From assembly GCA_964619205.1 (NCBI GenBank), contig CAZUDE010000002.1:61420-125419 (forward strand): a DNA stretch of 64,000 nt, written 5' to 3'. The position numbers and the translations under genes were made by a program. The notes under the pieces are model-generated. The model saw nothing but the letters and a program-made list of their open reading frames with translations. It ran no database searches and was not told where the DNA came from. The stretch is from an uncultured Desulfobacula sp. (GTDB lineage: Bacteria; Desulfobacterota; Desulfobacteria; Desulfobacterales; Desulfobacteraceae). This document shows, piece by piece, positions 15,717 to 43,476 of the stretch; position 1 is the stretch's first letter, and each line of letters begins with the position of its first letter.

Positions 15717-17735
15717 ATGAAAACAGTTGGGAAATTTTTAGCAGTCATATTATTTTTAATGATCCTTCCCATGGGTCTTGTTTCAGCTGAAGAAAAAAAA
15801 CAGCAGAGCCAGATCTTTGATCTCGGGGAGGTACTGATCATGGACAAAGGGGATGAGATCAACAGTATCACCACGACAGAGACGGTATCGATGGAGGATA
15901 TTGAAATGCAGGGGGCCCAGACCGCTGCAGACGCCTTGGAAATGATTCCGGGGATTGATGTCATGACCACTGGCAAGAACCAGTCAAGTATCAGGCTCAG
16001 GGGCTTTGATCAAAAACAGGTTAGAGTCCTGATTGACGGTGTTCCTGCCCATGAATCCTATGACGGATCCCTGGCTCTGGATATGATCCCCGTGGATTCC
16101 ATTGCCAGGATAAAAATCATCAAAGGTGCTTCATCCGTTCTTTACGGCCCCAATACCCTGGGCGGGGTCATTAACATCATCACTAAAAAAGGCGGTGAAA
16201 AACCTTATACCAGTCTGATAACATCATTCGGGCCCAATGATACCCAGAATTATATTGTCAACCACGGTGCGTCAAAGGGAAACTGGAATTACTGGGTTAC
16301 GGCAAGCCGCAGAAAATCGGGCGGGTATGACCTTTCCGATGATTTTGATAAAAACAACACACGGACAGGCCTGGGAACCGATTATAATGAGGACGGGGGT
16401 GTCAGGGATTTAAGCTATTATACAAAGAATACCTTTAATTCAAAAATCGGGTATGAGTATGATGCCACGTCAAAACTCTATCTGTCCTTTGATTATCATG
16501 AGAATGAAAAAGGCATCCCCACAATGCAGAAAAGATACTGGGAGTTTACCAACTGGGACCAGTGGCAGCTGAGTCTGGCAGGGGAGCATGATTTTACAGA
16601 CATCCTGTCCCTGAAGGCCAGGGTATATTATGTGGATCACGACGACAGCATTGAAGATATCGGCGGCTGGGATGCAAGCCATACCACTCCCGTGTCAAGA
16701 AAATGGTTTGAACGAAGCTCCTATGAGGACTATACCCTTGGCGGAGAAGTCCAGGCATATCTGGATTTCGGGGATGTGAGTCTTTTAAAGATGGGTCTTA
16801 ATTATATGAAAGATAATCATCAGGAGCAGGATTATCTTGATGCCACGTGCAGAGAAGTTGCCGGAGCTCCTTTTTATCCAGTGGGATACCGGCCTTTGAA
16901 AGAATTTGAAGCTGATGTTTATTCCTTTGGCATCGAAGATGAGGTTAAACTGACCAAACAGCTGACCCTGAATGCAGGGGTGAGTTATGATGTCTATAAA
17001 CCGGTTAAAAATTATTTTAATTATGTCCGTGATGATATTAAGACCTGGAACCCCCAGACAGGAGTGTCCTTTGATGTGACCGAGAATTTTAACCTGTATG
17101 CGTCAGTCGGTAAAAAGACAAGATTTCCACAGTTAAAAGAGCTTTACAGCGTTGTTGCCGGTGGAAACGCCAGCCTGAAGCATGAAGAAAATATAGCCTA
17201 TGAAATCGGAGCAAAAAAAAGATTCAACAAGATATTTGATATGTCTGTAGCTGCTTTTTTTAATGATATTGAAAATAGAATCGATCGGCAAGGCAGTGCG
17301 TATTTGAATAAATTTGAAACTGAAATCAAAGGGATTGAAACCCAGTTGAACATCACAACACCCTGGAACCTGGATGCTGCATTGAGTTATACATTTATTT
17401 CTTCAGAGGAAAAGGCCACGGCTTCGAGCACTGTGACAGATGCCGCAAACGTTCCCGGCCGAAAGGCAAGCCTTGATTTGAGGTATGCCTTTGATTTTGG
17501 GCTCACAGCATCTTTTCAGGCCATTTATACATCAGATCAGCTCGATACCTACGCTGTCAGGTACAAGGAATTTACTGTCTGCAATGCCAGGCTGAATCAG
17601 GCCATTCCCATTTTTGAAAAGGTTTCCACAGACCTTTTTCTGGAATTTTCCAATATTTTTGATGAAAATTATGAAGAAGGATGGGGCCCGACTCCGGGGA
17701 GAAGTTTTCTGGCCGGCATGAAATTCAGTTTTTAA
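15717..17735 (+). CDS. TonB-dependent outer-membrane receptor
   Basis: Signal peptide; plug motifs IRLRGFDQKQVRVLIDGVP and IKIIKGASSVLYGPNTLGGVINIITKK; C-terminal PGRSFLAGMKFSF ending in Phe. Confidence 0.96.
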   Translation: MKTVGKFLAVILFLMILPMGLVSAEEKKQQSQIFDLGEVLIMDKGDEINSITTTETVSMEDIEMQGAQTAADALEMIPGIDVMTTGKNQSSIRLRGFDQKQVRVLIDGVPAHESYDGSLALDMIPVDSIARIKIIKGASSVLYGPNTLGGVINIITKKGGEKPYTSLITSFGPNDTQNYIVNHGASKGNWNYWVTASRRKSGGYDLSDDFDKNNTRTGLGTDYNEDGGVRDLSYYTKNTFNSKIGYEYDATSKLYLSFDYHENEKGIPTMQKRYWEFTNWDQWQLSLAGEHDFTDILSLKARVYYVDHDDSIEDIGGWDASHTTPVSRKWFERSSYEDYTLGGEVQAYLDFGDVSLLKMGLNYMKDNHQEQDYLDATCREVAGAPFYPVGYRPLKEFEADVYSFGIEDEVKLTKQLTLNAGVSYDVYKPVKNYFNYVRDDIKTWNPQTGVSFDVTENFNLYASVGKKTRFPQLKELYSVVAGGNASLKHEENIAYEIGAKKRFNKIFDMSVAAFFNDIENRIDRQGSAYLNKFETEIKGIETQLNITTPWNLDAALSYTFISSEEKATASSTVTDAANVPGRKASLDLRYAFDFGLTASFQAIYTSDQLDTYAVRYKEFTVCNARLNQAIPIFEKVSTDLFLEFSNIFDENYEEGWGPTPGRSFLAGMKFSF

Positions 17736-17761
17736 CCTGAAACAGGTTTTTACATAGTTCC

Positions 17762-17794
17762 GGGCAGCGAAACAGGGCCATTATCTCGCTGCCC
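17762..17794 (+). terminator. Intercistronic hairpin after the receptor gene (mRNA stabiliser or attenuator candidate)
   Basis: GGGCAGCGA...TCGCTGCCC 9-bp stem, no U-tail. Confidence 0.4.
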
Positions 17795-17798: not shown

Positions 17799-18932
17799 AT
17801 GACCAAGGCATTAAAAATGACAAAATCAAAAATTTTATGGTCTCTTTTCTGTGTCATCATCTTTGCTTTTCTTTTCAGGGTTTATCTTGTTCATGAATCG
17901 AAAAATAAGGAAATTCCGGGCAAAACCCGCACCGTTACAGACATGAAGGACCGCACCTTTGAGGTGAAAGATCCCATAAACCGGATTGCTCTTTTAGGTG
18001 GCCCCACAGGCCAGATTGCATTTATCCTGGGAATCCAGGATCGTCTTTGCGCCGTGACCAATACCCTTAAAATGTCGCCCCTGGTCAGGGAAATGTATTT
18101 AAAGATCAAAGATCTTCCGGGGCCCCGGACCACATCGGGCAGTATCAACATTGAAGAACTCATCCGGTCAAATCCGGATATTGCCGTGGCAGGTGATATT
18201 GACGGCAATATCGTTCTTGAAAAAACCCGTATCCCCGTGGCCTTTCTCTCAGACAGTATGGGGGAAGGCCTTGTGGATATCAAAAAGGAAGTCCTGTTTT
18301 ACGGGTATCTGTTCAATGCAAAGGACAGGGCGGAAAAATATGTTAAATTTCTGGACCGGGTCACCGGTCTGGTGAGGCAAAGGACTAAGGACATCCCAAA
18401 AGATGCCAAGAAGACTGTTTTCCAGGGCTATAACCCCAGTCACCTTGTGACCCTGGGCGGAGACACCTTCATGCAGGAGCATATTGAACTTGCAGGCTGC
18501 TTGAATGCGGCGGAAACCATCACCACCCTGGGCGCACAGACCGGTCTTCATTCAGGGCTCGGCGAAGTGTCCATGGAACAGGTGCTGGACTGGAATCCGG
18601 ATATCCTGGTGATTAATTACGGGACATCTGATGACCTTTATACTGACCCCCAGTGGAATAAGATCAAGGCGGTGCAGGACCAACAGATTTTTTTTCAACC
18701 CGCCGGGATTTTTATTTTCAACCGGCCCACGGCAGAGTCGGCCGTTATTTTTCCTTTATGGCTGGCAAGCACGGCTTATCCGGACAGGTTTCAAGACCTT
18801 TGTATAAACTGTATTGTGAAGGAATTTTACAAGGAGATCCTCGGGTTTGATCTCAATGACGATCAGGTCAGGGGTATTCTTCTGGGGACCTATGAATTAA
18901 AAATGATGAAGGGGATCAGCCATAAAGGATAG
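17799..18932 (+). CDS. Fe/B12-type ABC substrate-binding protein (set 1)
   Basis: TVTDMKDRTFEV, NIEELIRSNPDI, VSMEQVLDWNPDIL. Confidence 0.9.
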   Translation: MTKALKMTKSKILWSLFCVIIFAFLFRVYLVHESKNKEIPGKTRTVTDMKDRTFEVKDPINRIALLGGPTGQIAFILGIQDRLCAVTNTLKMSPLVREMYLKIKDLPGPRTTSGSINIEELIRSNPDIAVAGDIDGNIVLEKTRIPVAFLSDSMGEGLVDIKKEVLFYGYLFNAKDRAEKYVKFLDRVTGLVRQRTKDIPKDAKKTVFQGYNPSHLVTLGGDTFMQEHIELAGCLNAAETITTLGAQTGLHSGLGEVSMEQVLDWNPDILVINYGTSDDLYTDPQWNKIKAVQDQQIFFQPAGIFIFNRPTAESAVIFPLWLASTAYPDRFQDLCINCIVKEFYKEILGFDLNDDQVRGILLGTYELKMMKGISHKG

Positions 18933-18993: not shown

Positions 18994-19965
18994 ATGTTTG
19001 TCCTTGTCCTGGTTGTAGTTTCATCCCTAAGCCTTGGCCGGGTGAATATTCCTTTTTTCCAGACGCTGAAGATCCTTTTTTCCCCTGTGTTTTCCCTGGA
19101 ACCGGACTGGTCCTCAACCACTTATTCAGTGGTCATGGATGTGAGACTGCCGCGGGTTCTGGCCGGAGTCCTTGTTGGGGCTGCGCTTTCCATATCCGGT
19201 GCATCTTTCCAGGGAGTGTTCCAGAACCCCCTGGTAAGCCCGCATATCCTGGGGGTGGCCTCGGGGGCCGGGTTCGGGGCAGCCCTGGCCATTCTTTTTT
19301 TTGACAATCTCTTCCTGATTTATTTTACCTCTTTTATATTCGGTCTGGCATCAGTGGCCATGACCTATGCCCTTTCAAGGGTGTATAAAATGACCCCGGT
19401 TCTTATGCTGGTCCTGTCCGGAATTGTGGTGGGGTCTTTGTTTTCAGCTTTGACATCGCTTCTGAAATATATTGCCGACCCCATGAACAAAATGCCGGCC
19501 ATTGTGTTCTGGCTTCTGGGATCGCTGAATCATGTGTCGTTTAGAAATCTTCTGATCACTGCGCCCCTCTTTATTATCTGCATTGCCGTCCTGCTTATGG
19601 TCAGATGGCAGATCAACCTTTTGTCCATGGGAGAAGAGGATGCAAAATCCCTGGGGGTAAACACCGAAACCCTGAAAGTCCTTATTATTGTCAGCGCCAC
19701 CATTGCAACGGCATCCGCCGTCTGCATCAGCGGCATCATAGGCTGGATCGGCATCATGATCCCCCACATCGGCCGGCTCATTGTGGGCCCTGATCATAAA
19801 TACCTGCTTCCCATTTCCATGGTCATCGGCGCTGCCTATCTTGTGGCTGTGGATACCATTGCCAGGACCGCACTTGCCACGGAGATTCCCATCGGAATAC
19901 TGACGGCGATTTTCGGGGCGCCCGTATTTGCTTTTTTACTCAGAAAAAGCCAGGGAGCTGCCTGA
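18994..19965 (+). CDS. FecCD/BtuC-family ABC permease (set 1)
   Basis: VRLPRVLAGVLVGAALSISGASFQGVFQNPLVSPHILGV, IGWIGIMIPHIGR. Confidence 0.95.
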   Translation: MFVLVLVVVSSLSLGRVNIPFFQTLKILFSPVFSLEPDWSSTTYSVVMDVRLPRVLAGVLVGAALSISGASFQGVFQNPLVSPHILGVASGAGFGAALAILFFDNLFLIYFTSFIFGLASVAMTYALSRVYKMTPVLMLVLSGIVVGSLFSALTSLLKYIADPMNKMPAIVFWLLGSLNHVSFRNLLITAPLFIICIAVLLMVRWQINLLSMGEEDAKSLGVNTETLKVLIIVSATIATASAVCISGIIGWIGIMIPHIGRLIVGPDHKYLLPISMVIGAAYLVAVDTIARTALATEIPIGILTAIFGAPVFAFLLRKSQGAA

Positions 19966-19968
19966 ACC

Positions 19969-20781
19969 ATGATTGGCCGGATCGACATACGCCATCTTTC
20001 CTTTGGGTATTCGGATCAAAAAGAAGACGCTGTCTTTACCAATATTACGATGTCCCTTGAACCGGGGCAGGTTTTCTGTCTTCTGGGGCCCAATGGATCA
20101 GGCAAATCCACCCTGCTCAAATGCATTACAAGGCTCTTGAAACCTGCCAGGGGAATGGTGACCATTGACGGAGAAAATATTACGGCATCAAGTTCAAACA
20201 AGATAGCAAAGAAACTGGGCTATGTCCCCCAGAGTCTTGTTTCGGCATTCCCGTTTACCGTGGAGGAAATCGTGGTCATGGGAAGAGCATCAAAAATCAG
20301 CATGATCTCTTCGCCTTCAAAAAAGGATCAGGACAAAGCCCGGGAATCCATGGAAAGGATCGGCATTGCCCATTTGGCGAGGCGTCCATGCAACAGGCTT
20401 TCAGGGGGGGAATGGCAGCTGGTCCTGATTGCCAGGGCCCTGACCCAGTCACCAAGGGTGCTGCTTTTGGATGAACCCACCTCCCACCTGGATCTGGGCA
20501 ACCAGGTGAAAATCCTGGAGGTGGTCAATACGCTGTCCAGGGACGGCATCACCATTATCATGGCCTCCCATTTCCCGGATCATGCATTTTTAAACGCTGA
20601 CCAGGTCGGTATCCTGAAAGGCGGGTCCATGAAGACCCTGGGAAACCCGGACAAGGTGTTGACCGAAGAGGTTCTTTTTTCCACCTATGGTATCCGGATC
20701 AGGGTCATAGAGATGTTTGAAGGGATTAACAGGAAGGTCTGTGTCCCGGTCTTAAAACAAGGCATAAAGGGAAATCCTTGA
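19969..20781 (+). CDS. FecE/BtuD-type ABC ATP-binding protein (set 1)
   Basis: GPNGSGKS, LSGGEWQLVLIARAL, LLDEPTSHLD. Confidence 0.95.
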   Translation: MIGRIDIRHLSFGYSDQKEDAVFTNITMSLEPGQVFCLLGPNGSGKSTLLKCITRLLKPARGMVTIDGENITASSSNKIAKKLGYVPQSLVSAFPFTVEEIVVMGRASKISMISSPSKKDQDKARESMERIGIAHLARRPCNRLSGGEWQLVLIARALTQSPRVLLLDEPTSHLDLGNQVKILEVVNTLSRDGITIIMASHFPDHAFLNADQVGILKGGSMKTLGNPDKVLTEEVLFSTYGIRIRVIEMFEGINRKVCVPVLKQGIKGNP

Positions 20782-20920: not shown

Positions 20921-20987
20921 CCCAGGAAAAGGGCGGATATTTATGGCCCACGGGCAACAGATCAGCGTTTATATAGTGGGAGGTATT

Positions 20988-22016
20988 ATGAAAACAACTA
21001 AAATTCTATGGATGGGGCTGTCCATCGGTCTTGGGGTTTGTTTTTTTTATGGGTGTGATTTTATCTCACAAAAACAGGCACAAACCCGGACCATCACCGA
21101 CCAGATGGGAAGAGAGGTGACCATCCCCAAACACCCCAAAAAAATTGCAGCCCTTCATCATTTTGGCGGAAAAATCATGTATGCCCTGGGCCGGCAGGAT
21201 TTCTTGGCAGATCAAAGCATCTACGGCAAAGAAGCCGAGGCCAGGCATAAAATCGATCCGGTCTTTGCGGCCCTGCCGAAAATCATCGAATCCCACGGGT
21301 ATAATGTGGAAGGCCTGGTCAGCCTGAACCCTGAAATCATCTTTGCCTATGCATCCATGGACAAACTGGAAATGGACCAGTTTGAAAATTCCGGAATCCC
21401 GGTGGTGGCCATAAAAGGGGAAACCCTGGAAGAAAGTTATACCGCCATCCGGCTGGTATCGGATGTGATGAATTGTAAAGAAAGGGGTGAATTTTATATC
21501 AAGGCCTGTCAGGATCTTGTGAATATGGTGCAAAGCCGCCTTGAAAGTCATGTGGAAAAACCCCTGGCCGTCATGTTTGCAGGGCCCAGGAGCATTTTTT
21601 CCGTTGCCACGGGCAATATGCTGCAGAACCAGATCCTGAACCTGTCCGGCGCATTCAATGTGGCACGGGAATTAAGCGGGTTCTGGGCAAATGTGTCGCC
21701 GGAGCAGATTGCAAAATGGAACCCGGATGTAATTTTTTTGGGCTCCTATCTGGATGTTTACGGCAAGGACAAAATCCTTGAAAATCCCCAGTTCCAGACC
21801 GTTACCGCCATAAAGGAAAAAAAGATTTTTACCTTTCCCTCCAATATCGGGTGGTGGGATTACCCGGCTCCCCATTGCGTCCTGGGTGTGGTCTGGTGCG
21901 CCAAAACCATTTATCCGGATCTTTTTGCCGATATCGACATGATGGCCGTGGCCAATGAATTCTACAAACAATTTGTGGGGTATACATTTGAAGAAATGGG
22001 AGGCAGGCTGGATTGA
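20988..22016 (+). CDS. Fe/B12-type ABC substrate-binding lipoprotein (set 2)
   Basis: Lipobox-like FYGC, TITDQMGREVTIPKHPKKI, VSPEQIAKWNPDVI; GGAGG RBS before 20988. Confidence 0.92.
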   Translation: MKTTKILWMGLSIGLGVCFFYGCDFISQKQAQTRTITDQMGREVTIPKHPKKIAALHHFGGKIMYALGRQDFLADQSIYGKEAEARHKIDPVFAALPKIIESHGYNVEGLVSLNPEIIFAYASMDKLEMDQFENSGIPVVAIKGETLEESYTAIRLVSDVMNCKERGEFYIKACQDLVNMVQSRLESHVEKPLAVMFAGPRSIFSVATGNMLQNQILNLSGAFNVARELSGFWANVSPEQIAKWNPDVIFLGSYLDVYGKDKILENPQFQTVTAIKEKKIFTFPSNIGWWDYPAPHCVLGVVWCAKTIYPDLFADIDMMAVANEFYKQFVGYTFEEMGGRLD

Positions 22017-23026
22017 AAAAAATTCTGATCACAGGCGGGCTGGTTTTCCCAGTGGTTTTATTCATCTGCCTCAGCATCGGCCGGTATCCCATTGAACCGG
22101 GCCGGGTGGCCGGGCTCCTCTTGGCTCCCTTTGGCATTGAAAATCGGCTTTTTGAAGCCCCCATGGATATGATGATGATTTTCTGGAATGTCCGGGTGCC
22201 GAGGATTATTCTAAGCATTTTTGTGGGAGCCGGGATTTCCACTGCAGGGGCTGTGTTCCAGGCCCTTTTCAGAAACCCGCTGGCTGCCCCGGATATCCTT
22301 GGGGTAACCTTTGGCTCGGGTTTTGGCGCAGCCCTGGCCATCATGTTTTTTGCCCCTGTTGCCCTGGTGATCCAGACCAGTGCCTTTGCCTTTGGGATCA
22401 CAGCGGTCACCCTGGCCTATATCCTGGCATCCCTGAGCCGTGACAGCTCCCCTTCGGTCCTGGTCATCTCCGGGATTGTGATTTCCGCGATATTCCAGGC
22501 CGGGCTTTCTTTTATCATGTATATTGCCAACCCCTATGACCAGCTGGCCCAGATTGTGTTCTGGACCATGGGCAGTTTTAATACCGCGTCCTGGATCAAG
22601 GTTGGGGCAACCGTGCCCCTGCTCTTGCCCGGCATTATGCTCATCATGATTTTTTCCTGGCGGCTGAACATCATGACCCAGGGAGAGGAAGATGCCGGGT
22701 CCATGGGCATCCATGTGGTGAGATGGCGGTACTTTTATGTCATCGTCAGCACCCTCATGGTGGCCTCTTCCGTGGCAAATGTGGGGAATGTGGCCTGGAT
22801 CGGGCTCATCGTACCCCATATTGCCAGGTATCTTGCCGGGTCTGAACACCGAAGACTCATCCCCATGACAGCCATGCTGGGGGGATTGTTTCTCATGGTC
22901 ATGGATACGGTGGCAAGAAGCGTCATGCTTTCTGAAATCCCCATCAGTATTGTCACCTCCATATTCGGCGCTCCCTTCTTAGGGTATCTGGTGGTCAGCG
23001 CCGGGAAAGCAAGGGTGTTTTCATGA
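22013..23026 (+). CDS. FecCD-family ABC permease (set 2)
   Basis: VRVPRIILS, QALFRNPLAAPDILGV, WIGLIVPHIAR. Confidence 0.95.
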   Translation: MKKILITGGLVFPVVLFICLSIGRYPIEPGRVAGLLLAPFGIENRLFEAPMDMMMIFWNVRVPRIILSIFVGAGISTAGAVFQALFRNPLAAPDILGVTFGSGFGAALAIMFFAPVALVIQTSAFAFGITAVTLAYILASLSRDSSPSVLVISGIVISAIFQAGLSFIMYIANPYDQLAQIVFWTMGSFNTASWIKVGATVPLLLPGIMLIMIFSWRLNIMTQGEEDAGSMGIHVVRWRYFYVIVSTLMVASSVANVGNVAWIGLIVPHIARYLAGSEHRRLIPMTAMLGGLFLMVMDTVARSVMLSEIPISIVTSIFGAPFLGYLVVSAGKARVFS

Positions 23027-23811
23027 ATCTCAGAGTTGAAAATATCAGTGCGGGATACGGCAAGAACCCTGTGATTTCCCTTGTCAACCTCACCGTGGCA
23101 CCGGGCAGGATCTGCGCCCTCATGGGCCGGAACGGGTCGGGCAAAACCACCCTGCTCCGCTGCATCAACGGGCTTTTGCCTTCCAGTGAAGGCAGGATCA
23201 TCCTCATGGGCCGGGATATAAAAAAACTCAGCCGGGACAAGATTGCAAGGATGGTGGGTGTTGTCCCCCAGGTGAGCGTTACCCCGTTCTCCTTTTCATG
23301 CCTTGACATGGTCCTGATGGCTGGGGCGGCCCGGATCAAAGCCTGGTCAGCTCCGTCAAAAAGAGACCACCAAAAAGCCCTGGGCGCCATGGCGGAAACC
23401 GGGATAGACCATATGGCAAAGAGGGCCTTTAATACCCTTTCCGGCGGGGAGAGGCAATTGGTCATGCTGGCCAGGGGGCTGTTCCAGGACACGCCCATCA
23501 TGCTCCTGGACGAGCCCAATTCCCATCTTGATTTTGCCAACCAGCATAAAATCATGGCCCTGATGCAGCGGCTTGCCAGAAAACGGAACATGACGGTTCT
23601 CATTACCCTGCATGACCCGAACCTGGCCCATTATTACTGTGATGATGCCATCCTTATCCACCAGGGCAGGGTCCGGGCCGCAGGAGAGATTGGTGTGACC
23701 CTGACCAACGAGGTCCTGTCCTGTGTTCTGGGGGATGATATTGAATGCGATGTAACAAAAAAAGGAGTGTTTGTGGCGATTCCCAAACAGATCCCTCAAA
23801 ATATGAATTAA
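23023..23811 (+). CDS. FecE-type ABC ATP-binding protein (set 2)
   Basis: GRNGSGKT, LSGGERQLVMLARGL, LLDEPNSHLD, HDPNLA. Confidence 0.95.
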   Translation: MNLRVENISAGYGKNPVISLVNLTVAPGRICALMGRNGSGKTTLLRCINGLLPSSEGRIILMGRDIKKLSRDKIARMVGVVPQVSVTPFSFSCLDMVLMAGAARIKAWSAPSKRDHQKALGAMAETGIDHMAKRAFNTLSGGERQLVMLARGLFQDTPIMLLDEPNSHLDFANQHKIMALMQRLARKRNMTVLITLHDPNLAHYYCDDAILIHQGRVRAAGEIGVTLTNEVLSCVLGDDIECDVTKKGVFVAIPKQIPQNMN

Positions 23812-26007: not shown

Positions 26008-26035
26008 ATTTAACCATGAAGGCCATGAGGAAAAG

Positions 26036-26768: not shown

Positions 26769-26912
26769 ATGTGTGACTGCAAATGCCAACACCCGGATAA
26801 GTTAAAAGACAAGCCTGAAAACTGTACACCCCGGCAGATTGAAGAATGCCATGGGAAAACAGGGGAGCATGCCTGTACCTGCGAGTCTGAAAAAGAGAAA
26901 AAAACAGAATAG
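26769..26912 (+). CDS. 47-aa Cys/His-rich mini-protein (metal-binding candidate)
   Basis: AAGGAG RBS; MCDCKCQHPDKLKDKPENCTPRQIEECHGKTGEHACTCESEKEKKTE has 7 Cys and 3 His. Confidence 0.7.
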   Translation: MCDCKCQHPDKLKDKPENCTPRQIEECHGKTGEHACTCESEKEKKTE

Positions 26913-35960: not shown

Positions 35961-36710
35961 TCAATATTCTTTTGCTTCCTTTTTGGTAATGGTTCGGTAG
36001 GGGATGCCGGTATATTCGGCATCCTCATTGGCGGTGACCACGATCACCTGTTTATGGCCCATCCGGATGGTTTTTGTTTTTTCCGATCCGATATGAACAT
36101 TGGAATCAACAGGCAGGCAGGCACCGGATCGAGTGACCAGCTGATCAATATAAGGATAACCGCATAGTGTTTTTACACTGACAATTTCACCGGGCTGACC
36201 CAGGTGGTACCATCCTCTGTAGCGACCGTCATTTCCAGAAAGTCTCAGCCCGATGCCGGCCATGGCTCCCACAACCCCCTGGCCGGTTCCGCCGTGTTCT
36301 GAAAGGTGAACACCGGTTTTCAGGGACAGGGCATAGGCTGCTTCTTTGGAAAAAATTTTTATTTTGGCATTTTCCCCGAATTCAATCAAACTCTTACGGT
36401 CCAGGTCTTCTGTGATTTCTGTAACGCAAAGGCCGGGATCTGATCCTTTTTCCGACCAGGTTTCAAGGAAATCGGCTATCAGTTCAATAATGGGCCTAAT
36501 AATCCCCTGTTTCAGGGTCAGTTCAAAACACATGGAAGAATTATGGGAAGTATAGGGAATGTCATCGTGGACAAAAAGCTGGTGTCGGCTGATGGCGCTG
36601 GTATCGGCCAGTCCTCTTTGCTTCAGTATTCCGCATAATTTTTCCACCAGCCAGCCGGTACCCCTGGTTCCGGGCATATCCGTGTCATCAATGCAAACAA
36701 GATAATTCAT
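35961..36710 (-). CDS. Stand-alone DDTD-motif protein (TiaS N-terminal/DUF1743-like)
   Basis: YLVCIDDTD..RGTG, HQLFVHDDIPYTSHNSSMC, SDPGLCV, GTGQGVVGAMAGIG; 249 aa, too short for a full TiaS. Confidence 0.75.
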   Translation of the reverse strand: MNYLVCIDDTDMPGTRGTGWLVEKLCGILKQRGLADTSAISRHQLFVHDDIPYTSHNSSMCFELTLKQGIIRPIIELIADFLETWSEKGSDPGLCVTEITEDLDRKSLIEFGENAKIKIFSKEAAYALSLKTGVHLSEHGGTGQGVVGAMAGIGLRLSGNDGRYRGWYHLGQPGEIVSVKTLCGYPYIDQLVTRSGACLPVDSNVHIGSEKTKTIRMGHKQVIVVTANEDAEYTGIPYRTITKKEAKEY

Positions 36711-36791: not shown

Positions 36792-36823
36792 ATGGTTATA
36801 ATTGGTTAATATTAATCATCATT
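36792..36823. promoter_or_regulatory. Shared 22-bp motif (copy 2) plus Fur-box-like site in the divergent promoter before the exbBD-tonB operon
   Basis: ATGGTTATAATTGGTTAATATT (19/22 vs 15513-15534); 36805-36823 matches the Fur consensus at 14/19; TTGACA at 36835. Confidence 0.5.
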
Positions 36824-36900: not shown

Positions 36901-37230
36901 ATGAACATGATTTTAGACCGGGCCTGCCTGTTTCTAAATCGGGAGCTCCATGAAATCCCAGAAATCCGGGAAATTATTGTAAATCCAAATTTTACAGGCG
37001 TACCCCTGGAAAATGATGACATGGGCATGGCCATGAACATCCGGCAAGGGTCTTGCAGGGATAATTATTCCATCAAGGAAATTGTAAAGGACAAGACTGT
37101 GGCCATTGTCGGATTCGGCGGCAATGTCACCAAGATTTCAAGCCGGGCAGCCAGGGTTTATGTCATGGAACCGGAACGGTTTTTTTCAGAATCAGGACAG
37201 GAGCTGTTTATACAGAAAAACAAATCATGA
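36901..37230 (+). pseudogene. Internally collapsed DUF364/DUF4213-like gene
   Basis: N-terminal NFTGVPLENDDMGMAMN joined to a Rossmann-like KDKTVAIVGFGG..RVYVME segment in only 109 aa. Confidence 0.5.
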
Positions 37231-38855
37231 AGAATTTATTTAAAACGGATCTTTTGTTTCAGATTCTCATAATAACAGCCCTGTGTATCCTGTCGAGCCC
37301 TTCTGCATGGGCGGATAAACGCACGGAAAAAGACCTGGACAAGGATGGCCGGATAGACCAGGTCTTGATTTATAGTGATGCCGGGGTCATTTTGAGGGCT
37401 GAATCCGACAAGGACCAGGACGGGTTTTTTGAAACCCTCCAGGAGTATCAGGAGGGAAAACTTGTCAAAATTGAAAGGGATACGGATAACGACAGAAAAA
37501 TAGACAGTATTGATTATATTGAAAATGAGAAACGAATCCGACAGGAAAAATTTGACCCCAACGGGAGCCTAATTCAGGTTTCATTTTTTGATGAAGCCGG
37601 TCAGGTTACCCAGATGAAAAAAGATACCACCGGGGATAAAAAATTCGATACCCTGTACCTGTTTAAAGCCGGAGCGCTTTCATCATCCACGAAAGATACC
37701 AATGGCAACGGCAAACCAAATGTCTTCTGCATTTATAAAAACCAAATGCCCATGGAACAGAAAATAGATGACAATGAAGACGGCGTCATGGATCGCCTTT
37801 TTTTCTTTGATGCAGAAGGTGAACTTGAAAAGATTTATAAGGAACCTTTTTCAAAAGAGAAATACAGAGTAACGGTTTTTTTTGAAAAAGGCGAGATCAA
37901 ATCCCAGGAACGGGATACCAATGAAGATGGAAAAGCCGATGACATCACCCGGTATATCAAAGGGGTTCCCTCTGAAAAGAAAAAAGACAGCAATTTTGAC
38001 GGTCGGTTTGATGCATTTACCGGGTTTGTCAATAATCTTCCCAAAACCCTGGAAAAAGATACGGATTTTGATGGAAAAATAGATTATTTTGCTGAGTTTG
38101 ACGACAGGGGAGAGGTTTTAACAATCCGTGAAGACACAAATGGAAATGGAAAAATCGACCGCATCCGGCATTTTCGGTCAGGCAGCCTTTACAGGATTGA
38201 GCAGGACGGCAATGATGATGGTTTTTTTGAAACCGTGTCAGTGCTGGAAAATAATAAAATGGTAAAGAATCTCATTGATAAGAATCAGGATGGCAAGGTG
38301 GATATGGAGGTTTTTTTCAATTCAAACCAGGAAAAGACGCGCCTGATAAGTGATGCGGATTTTGACGGATATTTTGAAACTACCCAGGTCTATGATAATC
38401 CTTTATGGACCGTTATTGTGTCTCTGGATATTGACAGAGATAAATATGTCGATGTCCGGTCCTTTTACAAGGATACGGTTTTAAGACAAAAAGAAATCGA
38501 TGAAGATTCAGACGGTGTCGTGGATGTTGTGGAAGTTTATAATCAAAAAGGGGAACTTGAAACAGTTGAAGAAAAAAAATCCGGGAAGAATTTCCTGACT
38601 TGGTTTTATGGTAATGGCGAAGTCCTTATTCGAGGGGAAGAAGATAGGAACCAGGATGGTAAAACCGAGATCTGGTATTTTTATGAAAACGGAAAATTAA
38701 AAACCGTGCAGGAAGATACCAATTTTGATGGAAAGCCGGACCTGTGGGAAGATTATGATGAAATTGAAGCGCTTGTAAAACGGGCAAAGGATCTGGATTT
38801 TGACGGAACCCCTGATTTTACAGATGTTGTTGGAAACGCTGAAAAAGACAGTTGA
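37227..38855 (+). CDS. Exported tandem-repeat protein with about 21 units carrying Dx[DN]xDG (Ca-binding-loop-like) motifs
   Basis: Signal peptide ending SAWA; repeat period about 24-25 aa, e.g. DLDKDGRIDQ, DSNFDGRFDA, DTNGNGKIDR, DLDFDGTPDF. Confidence 0.85.
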   Translation: MKNLFKTDLLFQILIITALCILSSPSAWADKRTEKDLDKDGRIDQVLIYSDAGVILRAESDKDQDGFFETLQEYQEGKLVKIERDTDNDRKIDSIDYIENEKRIRQEKFDPNGSLIQVSFFDEAGQVTQMKKDTTGDKKFDTLYLFKAGALSSSTKDTNGNGKPNVFCIYKNQMPMEQKIDDNEDGVMDRLFFFDAEGELEKIYKEPFSKEKYRVTVFFEKGEIKSQERDTNEDGKADDITRYIKGVPSEKKKDSNFDGRFDAFTGFVNNLPKTLEKDTDFDGKIDYFAEFDDRGEVLTIREDTNGNGKIDRIRHFRSGSLYRIEQDGNDDGFFETVSVLENNKMVKNLIDKNQDGKVDMEVFFNSNQEKTRLISDADFDGYFETTQVYDNPLWTVIVSLDIDRDKYVDVRSFYKDTVLRQKEIDEDSDGVVDVVEVYNQKGELETVEEKKSGKNFLTWFYGNGEVLIRGEEDRNQDGKTEIWYFYENGKLKTVQEDTNFDGKPDLWEDYDEIEALVKRAKDLDFDGTPDFTDVVGNAEKDS

Positions 38856-38871
38856 TCATGTGGAGAAAATT

Positions 38872-39483
38872 ATGCTGGAATTATTATCAAAAGGCGGGGT
38901 TCTGGTTATCCCCATTGTATTTTGTTCGGTCCTGGTCGTTGCAATTTTTTGTGAACGGATGATCCGTTATACCATTAACCGCAGCCGGGGAAAAGATATA
39001 GAAATCAAAGTGGCGGAATTGATAAAAGATGGGGATTCTGAAGCTGCGCTGAAGGCTTCCAAACAGAGCGGTTCTCCCATGGGAAGGGTTCTGGAAAAGG
39101 CCATAGAAGCAAAAGATCTTGATAATGAGGTGCTTGAATCCGTGATTGTGAATGCAACTGAGAATGAAGTCAGGGATCTGTCTTCATATCTTCAAGCCCT
39201 GGCCACCATTGGTAATATCGCCCCCCTCCTGGGTCTTCTGGGAACTATTTTCGGTATGATCAAAGCCTTTATGGTGATTCAGGAAATGGGCGGCAAGGTC
39301 AATGCGGCGGTTCTTGCCGGAGGTATCTGGGAAGCCATGCTGACAACGGCGCTGGGGCTTGTTGTGGCCTTGCCTACGATGGTGGCGCACAGCTATCTTC
39401 TGTCAAAGGTGGACCAGTATGAGGCAAGGCTTCAAAACGGATCGGTTCTTTTTTTGAAGGCAATTGCCAAAAAGGCGGTATGA
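38872..39483 (+). CDS. exbB: ExbB/TolQ/MotA proton-channel protein
   Basis: IGNIAPLLGLLGTIFGMIKAF, GGIWEAMLTTALGLVVALP. Confidence 0.93.
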   Translation: MLELLSKGGVLVIPIVFCSVLVVAIFCERMIRYTINRSRGKDIEIKVAELIKDGDSEAALKASKQSGSPMGRVLEKAIEAKDLDNEVLESVIVNATENEVRDLSSYLQALATIGNIAPLLGLLGTIFGMIKAFMVIQEMGGKVNAAVLAGGIWEAMLTTALGLVVALPTMVAHSYLLSKVDQYEARLQNGSVLFLKAIAKKAV

Positions 39484-39484
39484 C

Positions 39485-39892
39485 ATGCTTTCGTTCAAAA
39501 GAAACAAAGATCGATACCAGATGCAATCCCCCTTGACTTCATTGATAGATATTGTCTTTCTGCTCCTGATTTATTTTCTTTTGACCACCAATTTCCTGGT
39601 GGAAGAGGGCATCACCATCAAACTTCCCGATGCCAGGGCATCCGCACCCCAGATAAGGCAGGAAATCACGGTTACGGTGGATCAAGACGGAAACGCCTAT
39701 ATGGCGGATAAGGAAGTCCCCCTGGACCGGTTATATGCCAGGATTAAGGAAATGATAGGCAATGACAAGGACCGGCTGGTGATTATCAAGGCAGATAAAA
39801 CAGTGATTCTGAACAAGGCGGTCAGGGTTATGGATATTGCCAAGGCTGCCGGTGCCTCAAGACTCAGCCTGGCAACGGAAAAAGGACTTTAG
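39485..39892 (+). CDS. exbD: ExbD/TolR biopolymer transporter
   Basis: PLTSLIDIVFLLLIYF, IKLPDA, IKADK, VRVMDIAKAAG. Confidence 0.93.
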   Translation: MLSFKRNKDRYQMQSPLTSLIDIVFLLLIYFLLTTNFLVEEGITIKLPDARASAPQIRQEITVTVDQDGNAYMADKEVPLDRLYARIKEMIGNDKDRLVIIKADKTVILNKAVRVMDIAKAAGASRLSLATEKGL

Positions 39893-39901
39893 GTGGGACC
39901 C

Positions 39902-40597
39902 ATGACTCAAAAAGCATCCCCTAATTGGCTCCTCCGGGGATTTATTCTTATTTCCCTCGGGGCTCACGTTTTTTTCATTCTCCATGCAACAGGGATCTAT
40001 CAGAACAAAGCCATGTCCTATATTGAATTGACATTACAGCAGACATCCAGACCCGACATCCGCGTGATCCCGAAACCCAGACTCCGTCAGACCGATCTTC
40101 GGGTTTCCGAAGTCATGACAATGAAGGTAAAAGACTTTCAGGCTCCCAAAATACAGGTTGAGGAGATACAAAAACAAGAGGATTTCCGGGATACCCTGGA
40201 TCTTCCGCAGCTTCCAGAGAAAATGGATATTTCTGAATATTCTGCGTCAGGTTCAAGGGCAGGGGGGCTTGCAAATATAGGGAACGCTCAAGGACAGATT
40301 CAGTTTACCAGCGCAAAAGACTATTTTGAAATGCTGAATCTGCGGGTGCAGCGGTTTAAAAAATATCCGGAATCTGCAAAATCCGCGCACATCGAGGGAA
40401 GAGTCCATATCGAGTTTGTGCTGTTGAAAGACGGCACCCTGTCAGATATTAAAATCCTTAAAAGTTCCCGTCATAAAAACCTGGATGAGGCAGCCCTTGA
40501 AGCCATTAAAAAAGCATCACCATTTCCAAAACCACCTGATTTTCTTTTTAAGGGGCCTGTCACCATGCGGATCAATATCCTTTTTGAGCTTGCCTGA
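39902..40597 (+). CDS. tonB: TonB energy transducer
   Basis: N-terminal anchor LISLGAHV; C-terminal YPESAK..IEGRV..SSRHKNLDEAALEAIKKASPFPKPP. Confidence 0.9.
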   Translation: MTQKASPNWLLRGFILISLGAHVFFILHATGIYQNKAMSYIELTLQQTSRPDIRVIPKPRLRQTDLRVSEVMTMKVKDFQAPKIQVEEIQKQEDFRDTLDLPQLPEKMDISEYSASGSRAGGLANIGNAQGQIQFTSAKDYFEMLNLRVQRFKKYPESAKSAHIEGRVHIEFVLLKDGTLSDIKILKSSRHKNLDEAALEAIKKASPFPKPPDFLFKGPVTMRINILFELA

Positions 40598-40627: not shown

Positions 40628-41686
40628 ATGAAAACCGGTAAAATAATCAGACAGGGATTCTTTTCTTTTTCTTTCTTTCTACTGACTGCTTTTCTGGTTT
40701 TTATTCCGGTCATTGTGGCAGCAGGAACCGACACCGGGCGGACTGTTACCGACATGACCGGTCGCAGGGTGGTTATTAAAGGCCCGGTGAACAGGATCAT
40801 TACAACATTTAAACCAGCCAGCCTGTGTGTGCTTTCCCTTGGACTTGCCCAAAAGCTTGTCGGGGTTGACAATTCTTCCAGGCAGGATCGGTTGCAATTG
40901 GAGGTGTTTCCTGAGATTTCCAATCTTGAAGGGGTCGGTACAAAAACCACGGGCATTAATTTTGAAACCCTTGTCAACCTGAGACCGGATCTGGTGATTC
41001 TCTATTCTCAGAAAGAAGGGCTTTTGCTTGCGGACCGCCTTGACGCAATGAAAATACCTTCCATTGTGATCCTGCCTGAATCATTTGCAAGTATAAAAGA
41101 GTCCCTGCGTTTAATTGCCGGGGCAGAAGGGGAGACTAAAAGACTTCCCAATGTTGAGCTGCTGATGGATGAGGTGATTGAGTTTGTTGCAATGCGGCTT
41201 TCCGGTATTTCCGAAGAGGATAAAAAAACCGGGTATTTTGCGTCCGCCCTTGGGCTTTTCAGTACTGCGACGGGAAATATGATCGCAAATGAGATTTTTG
41301 AAAAGGCAGGCATAAAAAATGTTTCAGCCCATTTGACAGGGTATTTTCAGGAAATTTCACCTGAGCAGCTGGTAAAATGGAATCCCGATATCATGGTGTT
41401 GTCCCAGCACCTGAAAAAAGGAGAGGCAGAGCGGGTTTTCAATAAAGCCCTGCAAGAGATCAGCGCCATAAAAAACAAGGCGGTCTATCGGTGTCCGTCC
41501 AGCCTGGCACCCTGGGATTTTCCTTCTCCCCTGACGGTTCTCGCTACCTTATGGATCTCTCAGAAGGCTTATCCGGAGAGGTTTTCAGATATTGAGATAA
41601 AAGACCGTGCAGACGATTTCCATAAAAAACTGTTTGAAAAAACCATGACACAGATGGGCGGCACCCTGAGCGACGGCATTGAATAA
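40628..41686 (+). CDS. Fe/B12-type ABC substrate-binding protein (set 3)
   Basis: TVTDMTGRRVVI, NFETLVNLRPDL, ISPEQLVKWNPD, WDFPSP. Confidence 0.92.
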   Translation: MKTGKIIRQGFFSFSFFLLTAFLVFIPVIVAAGTDTGRTVTDMTGRRVVIKGPVNRIITTFKPASLCVLSLGLAQKLVGVDNSSRQDRLQLEVFPEISNLEGVGTKTTGINFETLVNLRPDLVILYSQKEGLLLADRLDAMKIPSIVILPESFASIKESLRLIAGAEGETKRLPNVELLMDEVIEFVAMRLSGISEEDKKTGYFASALGLFSTATGNMIANEIFEKAGIKNVSAHLTGYFQEISPEQLVKWNPDIMVLSQHLKKGEAERVFNKALQEISAIKNKAVYRCPSSLAPWDFPSPLTVLATLWISQKAYPERFSDIEIKDRADDFHKKLFEKTMTQMGGTLSDGIE

Positions 41687-42712
41687 ATGAAAGCGACACT
41701 GTCATTCTGGAAAATTATTTTTTTGCTTTTTTTTGTCCTGATGCTTGCTTTTATTCTGTCCATTGCATCAGGACGTGTCTCCATAGGGTTTTCAGACATG
41801 GTTAGCAGTGTTGCAAACTTTTATCAGAGCCGGGACTCCGCAGATGATTTTATTCCAAAGGAACTGGTGTTTCTGTGGATTCGGCTGCCCAGATGTCTCA
41901 TGGCTGTTCTCGTGGGGTCAAGCCTTGCCGTGACCGGGGCAGTATATCAGGCCCTGTTCAGGAATCCCCTGGTGTCACCGGATATTCTCGGGGTCTCTGC
42001 CGGGTGTACCTTTGGGGCAGCTCTGGGGCTTGTTCTTCCTTTCAATTCTTTTGCACTTGTGCATGTTCTTTCCTTTGGGTTCGGATTGCTTGCCGTTGCC
42101 CTGAGCATGGGTCTTGCAAGGGCCATCTACATAAAACCGGTCCTCATCCTGGTTCTGGCCGGTATGGTGGTGATGTCTTTTTTTAATGCCCTGCTCATGG
42201 TTGTGAAGTATTTTTCAGATCCCTATGATGAATTGCCCAGCATTATTTACTGGGTCATGGGGAGCCTGAGCCGCATCACCTGGGGCAATGTTCTGGTCAT
42301 GGCCCCATTTGTCGTATTGGGAATTTTTTTGTTCGTCCTGTTCAGTTTCAGGCTGAATATACTTTCCATGGGGGATATTCAGGCAAAATCCCTGGGAATA
42401 AACCCTTCATTTTTCAGGATGATCCTGATCACGGTAAGTTCGTTCATGGTAGCGGTCTCGGTTTCAACCTGCGGTCAGATTTCCTGGATCGGCCTGGTAA
42501 TCCCTCATCTGGCAAGAAGTTTGGTGGGACCGGAACATGAAAAAATGATTCCTGTATCCGCGCTTCTCGGCGGTATTTTTCTTTTGCTTACCGATTCTCT
42601 TGCCAGAAGCATTTCTTCTGCCGAGATTCCTGTGGGGATTATCACTGCTCTTGTCGGAGCCCCGATATTCGGCTGGTTCATGTTCAGGAACAGGAGCAGC
42701 GGATGGATCTGA
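41687..42712 (+). CDS. FecCD-family ABC permease (set 3)
   Basis: IRLPRCLMAVLVG, QALFRNPLVSPDILGV, WIGLVIPHLAR. Confidence 0.95.
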   Translation: MKATLSFWKIIFLLFFVLMLAFILSIASGRVSIGFSDMVSSVANFYQSRDSADDFIPKELVFLWIRLPRCLMAVLVGSSLAVTGAVYQALFRNPLVSPDILGVSAGCTFGAALGLVLPFNSFALVHVLSFGFGLLAVALSMGLARAIYIKPVLILVLAGMVVMSFFNALLMVVKYFSDPYDELPSIIYWVMGSLSRITWGNVLVMAPFVVLGIFLFVLFSFRLNILSMGDIQAKSLGINPSFFRMILITVSSFMVAVSVSTCGQISWIGLVIPHLARSLVGPEHEKMIPVSALLGGIFLLLTDSLARSISSAEIPVGIITALVGAPIFGWFMFRNRSSGWI

Positions 42713-43476
42713 TGCTGGAATGCCAAAACCTCGGGTTTAGCTACAGGGATAAAAAAATCTTTGAGAACATATCTTTTCAAGTGGCAAAGGGAAAATTCTG
42801 TGCAATCCTTGGCAGGAACGGGTCCGGGAAAACGACCTTGATTCATTGCCTGAATAAAATACTGACCCCCCTGACCGGCCGGATTCTGGTCCAGGGCAGG
42901 GATATCAATTCTTTTTCCCAAAATGATATTGCACAGGCCATCAGCCTTTTACCCCAGGAACAGATCGATATCTTTCCTTACCGGGTCATTGATGTAGTCG
43001 TCATGGGCCGGGCCCCGTTTTTAAAGATTGCGGCCCGCCCGGATGCAGGAGATTATGAGATGGCTGCCCAGGCGCTCAGGCAGTTAAATGCGCAGGGCCT
43101 TTCATACCGGAGTTTTAACCGGATATCCGGTGGAGAGCGGCAGATTGCCCTTCTGGCGCGCTGCCTTACCCAGACAGCGCCCATCATGCTGTTGGATGAA
43201 CCCACCAACCATCTTGATTTTAATCACCAGTATCATCTTCTATCCTCCATCCGTCATCTTTGCAGGGAAAAAGGAATCAGTGTTGTTGCATCCATGCATG
43301 ATCCCAATCTGGCCGCAGCGTTTGCCGATGATGTCATCATGATTAAAAACGGACGGGTCATGGACAGGGCAGCAAAGGATGAAGTGATGACTGAAAAAAA
43401 CATCTCAGCCCTTTACGATATGGACATCAAAAAAATCATGATCAACACAAAGACTTGTTTTTTTCTTCCCCGATAA
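42703..43476 (+). CDS. FecE-type ABC ATP-binding protein (set 3)
   Basis: GRNGSGKT, ISGGERQIALLAR, LLDEPTNHLD, HDPNLA. Confidence 0.95.
   Translation: MDLMLECQNLGFSYRDKKIFENISFQVAKGKFCAILGRNGSGKTTLIHCLNKILTPLTGRILVQGRDINSFSQNDIAQAISLLPQEQIDIFPYRVIDVVVMGRAPFLKIAARPDAGDYEMAAQALRQLNAQGLSYRSFNRISGGERQIALLARCLTQTAPIMLLDEPTNHLDFNHQYHLLSSIRHLCREKGISVVASMHDPNLAAAFADDVIMIKNGRVMDRAAKDEVMTEKNISALYDMDIKKIMINTKTCFFLPR

Follow-up and report, generated by a model that had tools for sequence, protein, structure and literature searches.

TonB- and FecCD-type importers encoded beside uncharacterised radical SAM enzymes in an uncultured Desulfobacula

The haem loci that encode ChuW or HutW provide the precedent for opening a ring by radical S-adenosylmethionine (SAM) methyl transfer. 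There, once TonB-dependent and FecCD-type transporters have brought in a metal chelate, radical SAM chemistry that needs no O2 processes it in the cytoplasm, with methyl transfer involved, and the loci serve metal starvation in organisms that live without oxygen. Other described systems come close in other respects. The BtuB-BtuFCD route, with cobamide remodelling, joins a small TonB-dependent receptor, class III substrate-binding proteins (SBPs) and type-II ATP-binding cassette (ABC) importers to adjoining enzymes. MolBC-A (HI1470-72), for molybdate and tungstate, and FrpB4/CeuE-FecDE of Helicobacter pylori, for Ni-(His)2, are also built on type-II importers, the latter being a known precedent for TonB-dependent uptake of a metal other than iron. 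To our knowledge, trace-metal acquisition by methanogens and sulfate reducers in sulfidic, anoxic habitats is poorly understood, and no siderophore-processing chemistry is known there. The locus treated here lies at 15.7-43.5 kb of a 64,000-nucleotide stretch of DNA (the window) from an uncultured Desulfobacula sp. (assembly GCA_964619205.1, contig CAZUDE010000002.1), and it resembles each of these systems in part.

Genes were mapped from an open reading frame (ORF) listing with Pfam and NCBIfam scans. The six-frame ORFs of 84 related loci, from about 90 considered overall (L001-L091), were then compared with all proteins of the window. This comparison shows that the coupling of importers and enzymes is real and conserved across domains of life. 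The clearest case involves a class I SAM methyltransferase (MTase; 26936..27598, +; Pfam Methyltransf_11/25) and, next to it, a radical SAM enzyme that carries a fused, partial TroA-like binding-protein domain (the fusion; 27595..29337, +; Pfam Radical_SAM plus Peripla_BP_2). Of 83 loci, 75 have the MTase gene immediately upstream of the fusion gene, and 67 have a gene for a FecCD permease inside the fetched flank. In its minimal methanogen form, as in M. maripaludis and M. burtonii, the cluster reads SBP-MTase-fusion-(SBP)-permease-ATPase. An earlier account of this DNA, the original prediction, had proposed that the locus imports a chelate or cofactor and modifies it, and had named co-occurrence of enzymes and transporters in other genomes as the test; the test was run, and the genes do co-occur. 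We read the region as a metal-starvation island, in which the anaerobic uptake of a metal chelate, most likely of iron, would be followed by processing of the ligand by radical SAM enzymes. This reading is tentative, and falls a little short of being probable.

The fusion family was found in 161 of 185,579 species genomes (one genome per species), mostly in methanogens, and every host that has a name is a strict anaerobe: methanogens, ANME-1, Desulfobacterales and Spirochaetota. Members are about 575-590 amino acids (aa) long, with identities of 63-82% in Desulfobacterales and of 46-55% in methanogens, ANME-1, Methanolliviera and Spirochaetota. When 18 members are aligned, the CX3CX2C motif (C68/C72/C75) is invariant, as are four N-terminal cysteines that probably bind an auxiliary cluster, and a zinc-ribbon-like pair of cysteine pairs (C280, C283, C309, C311; CxxC/CxC) is nearly so. 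Many residues of the SBP-like domain are invariant as well. The binding-protein part of the fusion is an invariant and highly conserved domain of a large family, not a decayed gene. An AlphaFold2 model of the fusion is confident across both domains, with a predicted local distance difference test score (pLDDT) of 90 and a predicted template-modelling score (pTM) of 0.89. Its N-terminal domain superposes on pyruvate formate-lyase (PFL) activase with a template-modelling (TM) score of about 0.7 for the target, QueE and NifB being more distant. Its C-terminal domain amounts to about 60% of a TroA-like binding protein, and its best fold matches are 4hn9, 4pag, 4ovk, MolA, CeuE, YiuA and BtuF.

The partner MTase belongs to the family of MMP1179 of M. 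maripaludis, whose structure, PDB 3DLC, it matches with E 1e-65 over residues 12-217. That structure is a structural-genomics entry with SAM bound; it has been described as CouO/Coq5-like, with an unusually large substrate cavity (PMC5289526).

A second radical SAM enzyme, rSAM_A (23823..24833, +; Pfam Radical_SAM), has its start taken at MKCNFCEHKC and its cluster motif in CNFRCRYC, and it is paralogous to the N-terminal half of the fusion (33% identity, E 9e-49). It is always followed by unk390 (24835..26007, +), an orphan cytoplasmic protein of 390 aa. Together with a second importer these two make up what we call module 2, SBP2-Perm2-ATP2-rSAM_A-unk390, whose order is intact at about 50% identity in L088-L090; it is seen only in bacterial loci, all of Desulfobacterota and chiefly of Desulfobacula and other Desulfobacterales. 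No Pfam or NCBIfam family matches unk390, and sequence-profile searches of PDB and Pfam with it were empty. All of its 332 homologs are annotated as hypothetical, and those with a taxon name are almost all from Desulfobacterota. Its AlphaFold2 model (pTM 0.82) gave in Foldseek a weak top match to 1ei6, a phosphonoacetate hydrolase (E 3e-4), followed by ENPP4, both of the alkaline-phosphatase superfamily.

Two further genes stand between unk390 and the MTase. The first encodes a zinc deaminase of the CDA fold (25997..26698, +; Pfam dCMP_cyt_deam_1), exported or membrane-anchored, with the HAE and PCxxC motifs and a hydrophobic segment at residues 14-32; among PDB entries it lies nearest to TadA and guanine/cytosine deaminases (E ~1e-4). 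It joins module 2 in Desulfobacula-like loci and in L090. The second, known from its translation (26769..26912, +), is a Cys/His-rich mini-protein of 47 aa without a family match, which accompanies module 2 in Desulfobacula-like loci and is 78-80% identical in four Desulfobacula loci (L001, L005, L007, L022).

Both radical SAM proteins, rSAM_A and the fusion, score above the cut-off of Pfam PF04055, and thus belong to the radical SAM superfamily. Beyond this, the enzymes of the locus fail every curated family test that was run: AmmeMemoRadiSam, PflA-type activases, ChuW/HemN, TiaS and octahaem. Against TIGR04337 (AmmeMemoRadiSam), with its cut-off of 220 bits, rSAM_A reaches 141 and the fusion 99, and no Pfam match to AMMECR1 or Memo appears among the roughly 45 window ORFs scanned. 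Against the glycyl-radical activases TIGR02493/02494 the scores are 21-39 bits, the cut-offs being 174-232, and the locus holds no glycyl-radical enzyme. No family of the HemN/ChuW type is among their NCBIfam and Pfam matches, the best of which are of the AmmeMemoRadiSam and PFL-activase types. For the fusion, unk390 and the DDTD protein described below, no functional study turned up in the literature searched. The locus holds at least two uncharacterised enzyme families. The view that no known pathway explains the enzymes has therefore stood up, as neither a curated family nor a paper was found to account for them; the novelty claimed for the locus as a whole applies to these enzymes and does not extend to the transport machinery.

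The transport parts are, indeed, ordinary members of known families. Three complete sets of Peripla_BP_2, FecCD and ABC_tran proteins (17799-20781, 20943-23811 and 40628-43476) score above the Pfam gathering thresholds. The first, on the + strand like the others, consists of SBP1 (17799..18932; class III, TroA-like), Perm1 (18994..19965; FecCD, E 9e-90) and ATP1 (19969..20781; also by synteny), and with the MTase and the fusion it constitutes module 1. In most related loci the fusion is flanked by genes like that of SBP1, and permeases 50-65% identical to Perm1 adjoin it in methanogens and Spirochaetota. The second set is SBP2 (20943..22016), Perm2 (22013..23026) and ATP2 (23023..23811), assigned by Pfam and by synteny, that of SBP2 with L001, L005, L006, L010, L014, L022 and L088-L090. 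The third is SBP3 (40628..41686; synteny with L011-L013, L086 and L087), Perm3 (41687..42712) and ATP3 (42703..43476), Pfam and synteny again agreeing. Here the SBPs, like the domain fused to the radical SAM enzyme, fall in a TroA-like cluster that holds binders of iron complexes, catecholate (YiuA), Ni-His (CeuE) and the MolA ligands. All three are closest to 4hn9, MolA, 4ovk and CeuE; BtuF and haem binders match SBP2 and SBP3 far more weakly, and SBP1 not at all. The nearest PDB entries of SBP1 are 4ovk, MolA 3psa and CeuE 4ino; SBP2 matches 4hn9 with E 3e-39 and MolA with E 1e-29, and SBP3 matches 4hn9 with E 3e-32.

What had been described as the remnant of a fourth ABC set is present in frame 3 of 20768-20917 (+), as the last 50 or so codons of an ABC ATPase gene, from the H-loop to the C-terminus. 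It is 60-68% identical to the C-terminus of an extra ATPase at the same position in L005, L006 and L022, and 49% identical in L089. In relatives this extra ATPase gene precedes a gene for a 277-aa methyltransferase, itself before SBP2; that methyltransferase gene is missing from the window. The remnant is a pseudogene scar of recombination.

TonB-dependent transport is represented by a receptor with plug and barrel (15717..17735, +; 672 aa; Pfam Plug plus TonB_dep_Rec_b-barrel) and by ExbB (38800..39483, +; Pfam MotA_ExbB), ExbD (39464..39892, +; Pfam ExbD) and TonB (39893..40597, +; Pfam TonB_C). BtuB is the best PDB match of the receptor (E 2e-26), chiefly over the plug, and the receptor falls below the cut-off of every NCBIfam equivalog, with 146 bits against 600 for TIGR01779 and 136 against 836 for PRK10641. 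It is 24-28% identical to the receptors that accompany the DDTD protein or module 2 in L086, L087, L090 and L030, and a partial match of 47-50% is found at the locus edge in L014 and L089. A metagenome scan for orthologs gave one usable locus, L091, with 78% amino-acid identity. A selenoprotein-type receptor with a Cys/Sec motif was considered and rejected, the plug having no Cys motif.

The rest of the locus is more varied. Immediately after the fusion, a c-type cytochrome (29345..31615, +) is recognised by exactly eight CXXCH motifs, a signal peptide and a C-terminal membrane domain of about five transmembrane helices. Its matches to multiheme families of Pfam and NCBIfam are weak and all below the cut-offs; for the octaheme tetrathionate reductase and MmcA families it reaches 48 bits against 375 (TIGR04315) and 50 against 250 (TIGR04314). 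It follows the fusion only in four Desulfobacula loci (L005, L006, L008, L022). Next comes a hybrid histidine kinase of 967 aa with a receiver (31726..34629, +; Pfam PAS (3), GAF, HisKA, HATPase_c, Response_reg). No ortholog of it was found in the related loci compared, and its membership in the system is doubtful. Just upstream of its gene, at 31666, is a Fur-like palindrome that matches at 13 of 19 positions. The kinase gene ends 2 bp from a convergent gene for a purple acid phosphatase with a signal-like N-terminus (34631..35890, -; Pur_ac_phosph_N and Metallophos, both above cut-offs); L001 has a homolog close to the cluster (57%), and L086 has one inside its DDTD operon (49%).

Upstream of the phosphatase gene, on the same strand, is the gene for the DDTD protein (35961..36710, -), a stand-alone, TiaS-TCKD-like (DUF1743-type) protein of 249 aa assigned by profile matches. 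Over residues 1-157 the family profile matches TiaS entries 3amt/4rvz (E ~5e-4) and the archaeal protein 3u02 (E 4e-5). The identification of the protein as TiaS itself was rejected, as NF040849 gives 23 bits against 600 and only the TCKD domain aligns; against NCBIfam methanogenesis marker 11 it is far below the cut-off. Divergent from the DDTD gene is a second operon that begins with an ORF of 109 aa (36901..37230, +), possibly a degenerate DUF4213/DUF364 fragment. The evidence is two collinear, weak Pfam matches below threshold, DUF4213 and DUF364, with E 0.005 and 0.016; no significant BLASTP match to intact DUF364 proteins was obtained. Intact DUF364 genes are missing from the window; L001 (D. 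toluolica) and L022 have one directly after the fusion, and about eight further related loci have one elsewhere. The operon continues with an exported Asp-repeat protein (37227..38855, +; a signal peptide and 14 copies of DxDxDG), homologs of which precede ExbB in L012, L013 and L086, and then with ExbB-ExbD-TonB and SBP3-Perm3-ATP3. The first operon, on the + strand, extends from the receptor to the octaheme cytochrome with intergenic gaps of no more than 162 bp. Pfam and NCBIfam matches, translations and motif counts thus bear out almost every gene of the original prediction at its coordinates, the gaps in that inventory being the kinase (31726-34629), which lies between the two halves, and the 109-aa ORF (36901-37230).

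These genes do not, however, behave as the one integrated system that had been proposed. Elsewhere the modules occur separately; the cytochrome, deaminase and mini-protein are accessories found in few relatives, and no ortholog of the kinase was seen in the related loci. Besides modules 1 and 2, a third module (Asp-repeat-ExbB-ExbD-TonB-SBP3-Perm3-ATP3) recurs in L011-L013, L086 and L087, and a fourth, the DDTD protein with the phosphatase, has elsewhere a receptor and ABC set of its own. In Desulfotignum balticum (L086) and Desulfobacula phenolica (L087) the DDTD gene sits in a receptor-DDTD-permease-ATPase-SBP operon, to which Desulfotignum adds the phosphatase, and this operon is divergent from module 3, a divergon that the window shares. 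Desulfotalea has a solitary DDTD gene. Because the four modules are separable elsewhere, the region is better seen as an island of systems than as one pathway, and the window is a recombined mosaic. The Desulfotignum operon, for its part, runs on into a different radical SAM enzyme of 478 aa (L086 13163-14599), which has no counterpart in the window.

The two halves do share an upstream motif, as had been noticed. The 13-mer GTTATAATTGGTT occurs exactly twice in the 64 kb, at 15516 and 36795, both times on the + strand and in a promoter region, where even with one mismatch 0.14 occurrences would be expected. The first element (15516..15547, +), upstream of the receptor operon, continues into a Fur-box-like AT-rich stretch; the second (36795..36823, +), with the exact 13-mer, lies in the divergent promoter region. 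The window's best match to the classical Fur consensus, 15 of 19 positions, is at 15529 and the second best, 14 of 19, is at 36805, each beside the 13-mer. Twelve of the 13 positions are kept in the promoter of the receptor ortholog of L091, while the DNA around them has diverged, and L011 has another copy, again with 12 of 13, in intergenic DNA that precedes its module-1 ABC genes. The element is therefore real and conserved, and it is a putative Fur-family operator. Its left half, TGTTATAAT, may resemble a Zur half-site.

Other signals were sparse. Searches for a cobalamin riboswitch or any other Rfam family were negative, at the gathering score for the window and seven related bacterial loci, and at E<=1 for the first leader. 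The leader of the receptor operon folds no better than shuffled sequences (z 0.75), and scans for sigma-70 promoters and terminators returned chance level. The same leader (15609-15716, +), from a conserved TTGACA to the start codon, is far better kept between the window and L091 (1150-1253) than is the DNA further upstream. Within it, ahead of a T-run, lies a hairpin in which two changes appear to be compensatory; on a comparison of just these two sequences, a regulatory RNA is conceivable.

How might such a metal-starvation island work? The receptor, energised by ExbB-ExbD-TonB of module 3, would bring one or more metal chelates into the periplasm, and the three FecCD importers would move them to the cytoplasm. 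There, the radical SAM enzymes would process the imported ligands, since O2-dependent chemistry is impossible in strict anaerobes, and ChuW/HutW set the precedent. In module 1, the fused SBP-like domain would capture the imported chelate in the cytoplasm for the PFL-activase-like radical SAM domain, and the MTase would add a methyl group to the ligand or to what the radical reaction makes of it, which would release the metal or inactivate the ligand. In module 2, rSAM_A would work with unk390, which may have an alkaline-phosphatase-like fold, and in this lineage a periplasmic deaminase would precede them. The deaminase, phosphatase and cytochrome may pre-process or reduce the ligand; the cytochrome, phosphatase and DDTD protein, which we propose are lineage-specific accessories, may reduce, dephosphorylate or ATP-activate it. 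In this scheme, metal chelates as the ligands, iron as their metal, binding of the imported ligand by the fused domain, and each of the chemical steps are all inferred.

That enzymes lie on both sides of the inner membrane is borne out by the distribution of signals. N-terminal hydrophobic or signal-like segments are present in the deaminase, the phosphatase, the cytochrome, the Asp-repeat protein, the SBPs and the receptor; none is present in the radical SAM enzymes, the MTase, unk390 or the DDTD protein. Iron is favoured, though not decisively, because of the Fur-like boxes, of neighbouring genes in methanogens, and of a response of Methanosarcina barkeri. In three methanogen loci (L002, L003, L029) the cluster has SufBD, ferritin or ZIP genes nearby. 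For M. barkeri, up-regulation of class III SBPs has been published for apparent iron limitation (PMC10846266).

Several observations pull the other way. The resemblance to the Fur consensus is modest (15/19 and 14/19) and the GATAAT part of the motif is not kept in L091, so that the regulator could be Zur, Nur or another. The motif also lies some 60 nucleotides upstream of the conserved -35 element in the first promoter. A Fur-box scan of 13 related bacterial loci was uninformative, because most of the fetched loci stop short of the operon promoter, and a DtxR/IdeR box scan of 70 archaeal loci gave one weak match only. Proximity to Suf or ferritin genes is confined to three loci, and the fold match of unk390 is weak (TM 0.35). 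Given the mosaic structure, co-location in the window is, of course, no evidence for a single pathway. Lastly, the tungsten-enzyme and nif neighbours of module 2 in two relatives, with the likeness of the SBPs to MolA, keep molybdenum and tungsten among the candidates. In L088 (11202-18062) module 2 adjoins genes for aldehyde:ferredoxin oxidoreductase, ThiS/ThiF and a radical SAM/SPASM maturase, and in L089 (11994-21215) it adjoins a nif cluster (NifB, NifEN, NifDK, homocitrate synthase); each may be coincidence or a hint of molybdenum or tungsten.

Two of the other readings change the cargo of the importers. If it were a non-iron metal that is scarce under sulfide (molybdenum or tungsten, nickel, cobalt, zinc) and that travels as an oxy- or thio-anion or in a small chelate, its carrier would be processed by the radical SAM enzymes and the MTase, or the metal fed by them into the assembly of a cofactor. 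The SBPs match MolA, which binds molybdate and tungstate, with E 1e-20 to 1e-30, as overall similarity only, and CeuE of H. pylori (Ni-His2) with E ~1e-13 to 1e-16. DUF364 proteins, which recur in about ten related loci, are tied by context to transporters of molybdenum, tungsten and iron (PMC2954201), and L088 and L089 abut the clusters just mentioned. These neighbourhoods may both be coincidental, however, the window has no intact DUF364 gene, and its best Fur consensus matches are those at the two promoters. Further, a TonB-dependent receptor and three type-II importers point to bulky chelates, not to free anions. We consider this reading unlikely. The same can be said of a salvage of cobamides or other tetrapyrroles, in which a BtuB-like receptor and BtuF-like importers would deliver a macrocycle, and the radical SAM enzymes, the MTase, the deaminase and an alkaline-phosphatase-like phosphodiesterase (unk390) would remodel it or its nucleotide loop, or open the ring for its metal as ChuW does. 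Purinyl cobamides occur in sulfate reducers, and a base deaminase with a protein of possible phosphodiesterase-type fold would suit a nucleotide loop. BtuB is, moreover, the receptor's best structural match, and SBP2 and SBP3 also match BtuF and haem-binding SBPs (ShuT, and for SBP2 HmuT too) with E 1e-4 to 1e-9. Yet these proteins lie much nearer to the 4hn9/MolA/4ovk cluster than to BtuF or the haem binders, and the receptor's TIGR01779 score is about a quarter of the cut-off. The radical SAM enzymes are of the PFL-activase and AmmeMemoRadiSam kind, neither HemN/ChuW-like nor B12-binding, the operator shared by the two halves is Fur-family-like, and the riboswitch searches, which reached the window, the first leader and seven bacterial relatives, found no cobalamin element. 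Of the import-and-modify idea in the original prediction, the coupling is supported and the tetrapyrrole or B12 substrate is disfavoured.

Less likely again is a reading in which the enzymes build rather than dismantle. The radical SAM enzymes, the MTase, the deaminase and the orphan protein would here make a metallophore or a modified peptide, with the mini-protein as a precursor like those of RiPPs (peptides made by the ribosome and modified after translation), and the ABC systems would take the product back. A Cys/His-rich ORF of 47 aa beside a radical SAM enzyme and a methyltransferase does invite this thought. So does DUF364, as azetidine carboxylate chemistry resembles nicotianamine-type metallophore synthesis. 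The DUF364 enzyme that has been characterised makes azetidine carboxylates from SAM derivatives, in the first biochemistry reported for the family, in 2026 (PMC12930334). But DUF364 is not intact in the window, and the mini-protein is absent from about 70 archaeal loci and from most bacterial loci that keep the MTase and the fusion. FecCD systems are importers, and a transporter-derived binding domain on a radical SAM enzyme best fits a substrate that is imported. No exporter, peptidase, RiPP recognition element or SPASM domain was found in the locus, and among its genes scanned with Pfam there is neither an exporter nor a biosynthetic enzyme that would build a scaffold. Its machinery is importer-only.

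The reading as an island for metal-chelate uptake with radical SAM processing keeps its place, and a broader proposal may be attached to it. The fusion and the MTase would define a new enzyme class, extending from methanogens to sulfate reducers, in which a transporter-derived domain takes over the chelate from its cognate type-II ABC importer and the ligand is broken or disarmed by radical chemistry. Strict anaerobes would thereby have a general, O2-independent means of freeing metals from organic chelates, of which the opening of haem by ChuW-type enzymes would be a special case. We regard this proposal as possible but doubtful.

What is at stake depends on the substrate. Module 1 spans the major methanogen orders and is present in M. 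maripaludis and Methanosarcina, which are genetically tractable, and one of its proteins has a crystal structure, 3DLC, with no function assigned to it. Assignment of a substrate would explain what two sizeable orphan families, that of the fusion and that of unk390, do; it would add a new reaction to radical SAM chemistry and a new use of the binding-protein fold, inside an enzyme; and it would reveal a route of metal acquisition relevant to methane production and to the ecology of sulfate reducers. If, on the other hand, the locus is several ordinary iron-uptake systems side by side, the value lies in better annotation only.

The genes that flank the locus are unrelated to it. Upstream they encode MacAB-TolC, a methyl-accepting chemotaxis protein, MoxR/DUF58, a GGDEF protein and a metallo-beta-lactamase. 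On this side an ORF of 126 aa (14196-14576, -) matches only positions 31-71 of the 98 in the profile of the LytTR DNA-binding domain, and is probably a truncated response-regulator gene. Downstream come a short-chain dehydrogenase, a PIN-domain gene, a Mo-hydroxylase and glycogen phosphorylase. The dehydrogenase gene (43529-44395, +; NCBIfam PRK06181, 395 bits) begins 53 bp after ATP3, so that co-transcription with the second operon is possible. At 45394-46001 (+) a small ORF and the PIN-domain gene may form a VapBC-like pair. The low GC of the patch that follows at 46001-48000 (0.37 against about 0.46) hints that DNA close to the downstream end of the locus is mobile or was acquired recently.

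How, then, does the locus stand beside the systems from which this account set out? The SAO system was set aside, as its paper concerns a different type of transporter. TiaS, the agmatidine synthetase for tRNA-Ile2, shares with the DDTD protein the N-terminal, DDTD-containing TCKD domain; unlike TiaS, with its roughly 420 aa, the DDTD protein lacks the rest of the enzyme, is bacterial, and is encoded inside receptor/ABC operons. MolBC-A and FrpB4/CeuE-FecDE have binding proteins of the same sub-cluster as those here, by sequence and by fold (as overall similarity), but they come without a radical SAM enzyme, a methyltransferase or any other processing enzyme. The cobalamin systems differ in that no cobalamin riboswitch and no genes of the CbiZ/CobS type are present here, and in that the receptor and SBPs are far below the BtuB and BtuF cut-offs.

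The ChuW/HutW loci are the nearest in logic, and differ in their parts. Their radical SAM enzymes are HemN-like, and those of the window are not, resembling instead PFL activase and AmmeMemoRadiSam; methyl transfer here would come from a separate class I methyltransferase; a binding-protein domain is fused to the radical SAM enzyme; the SBPs do not belong to the haem type; and the present system also occurs in methanococci, which are haem-free. The direct counterpart of module 1 is MMP1176-MMP1183 of M. maripaludis, where SBP, MTase, fusion (49% identical), SBP, FecCD and ATPase follow one another. That cluster has no outer-membrane receptor or TonB, no module 2, no cytochrome, deaminase or DDTD protein, and is itself functionally uncharacterised. 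What the sulfate reducer and the methanogen have in common is the importer with its methyltransferase and its radical SAM/SBP fusion.

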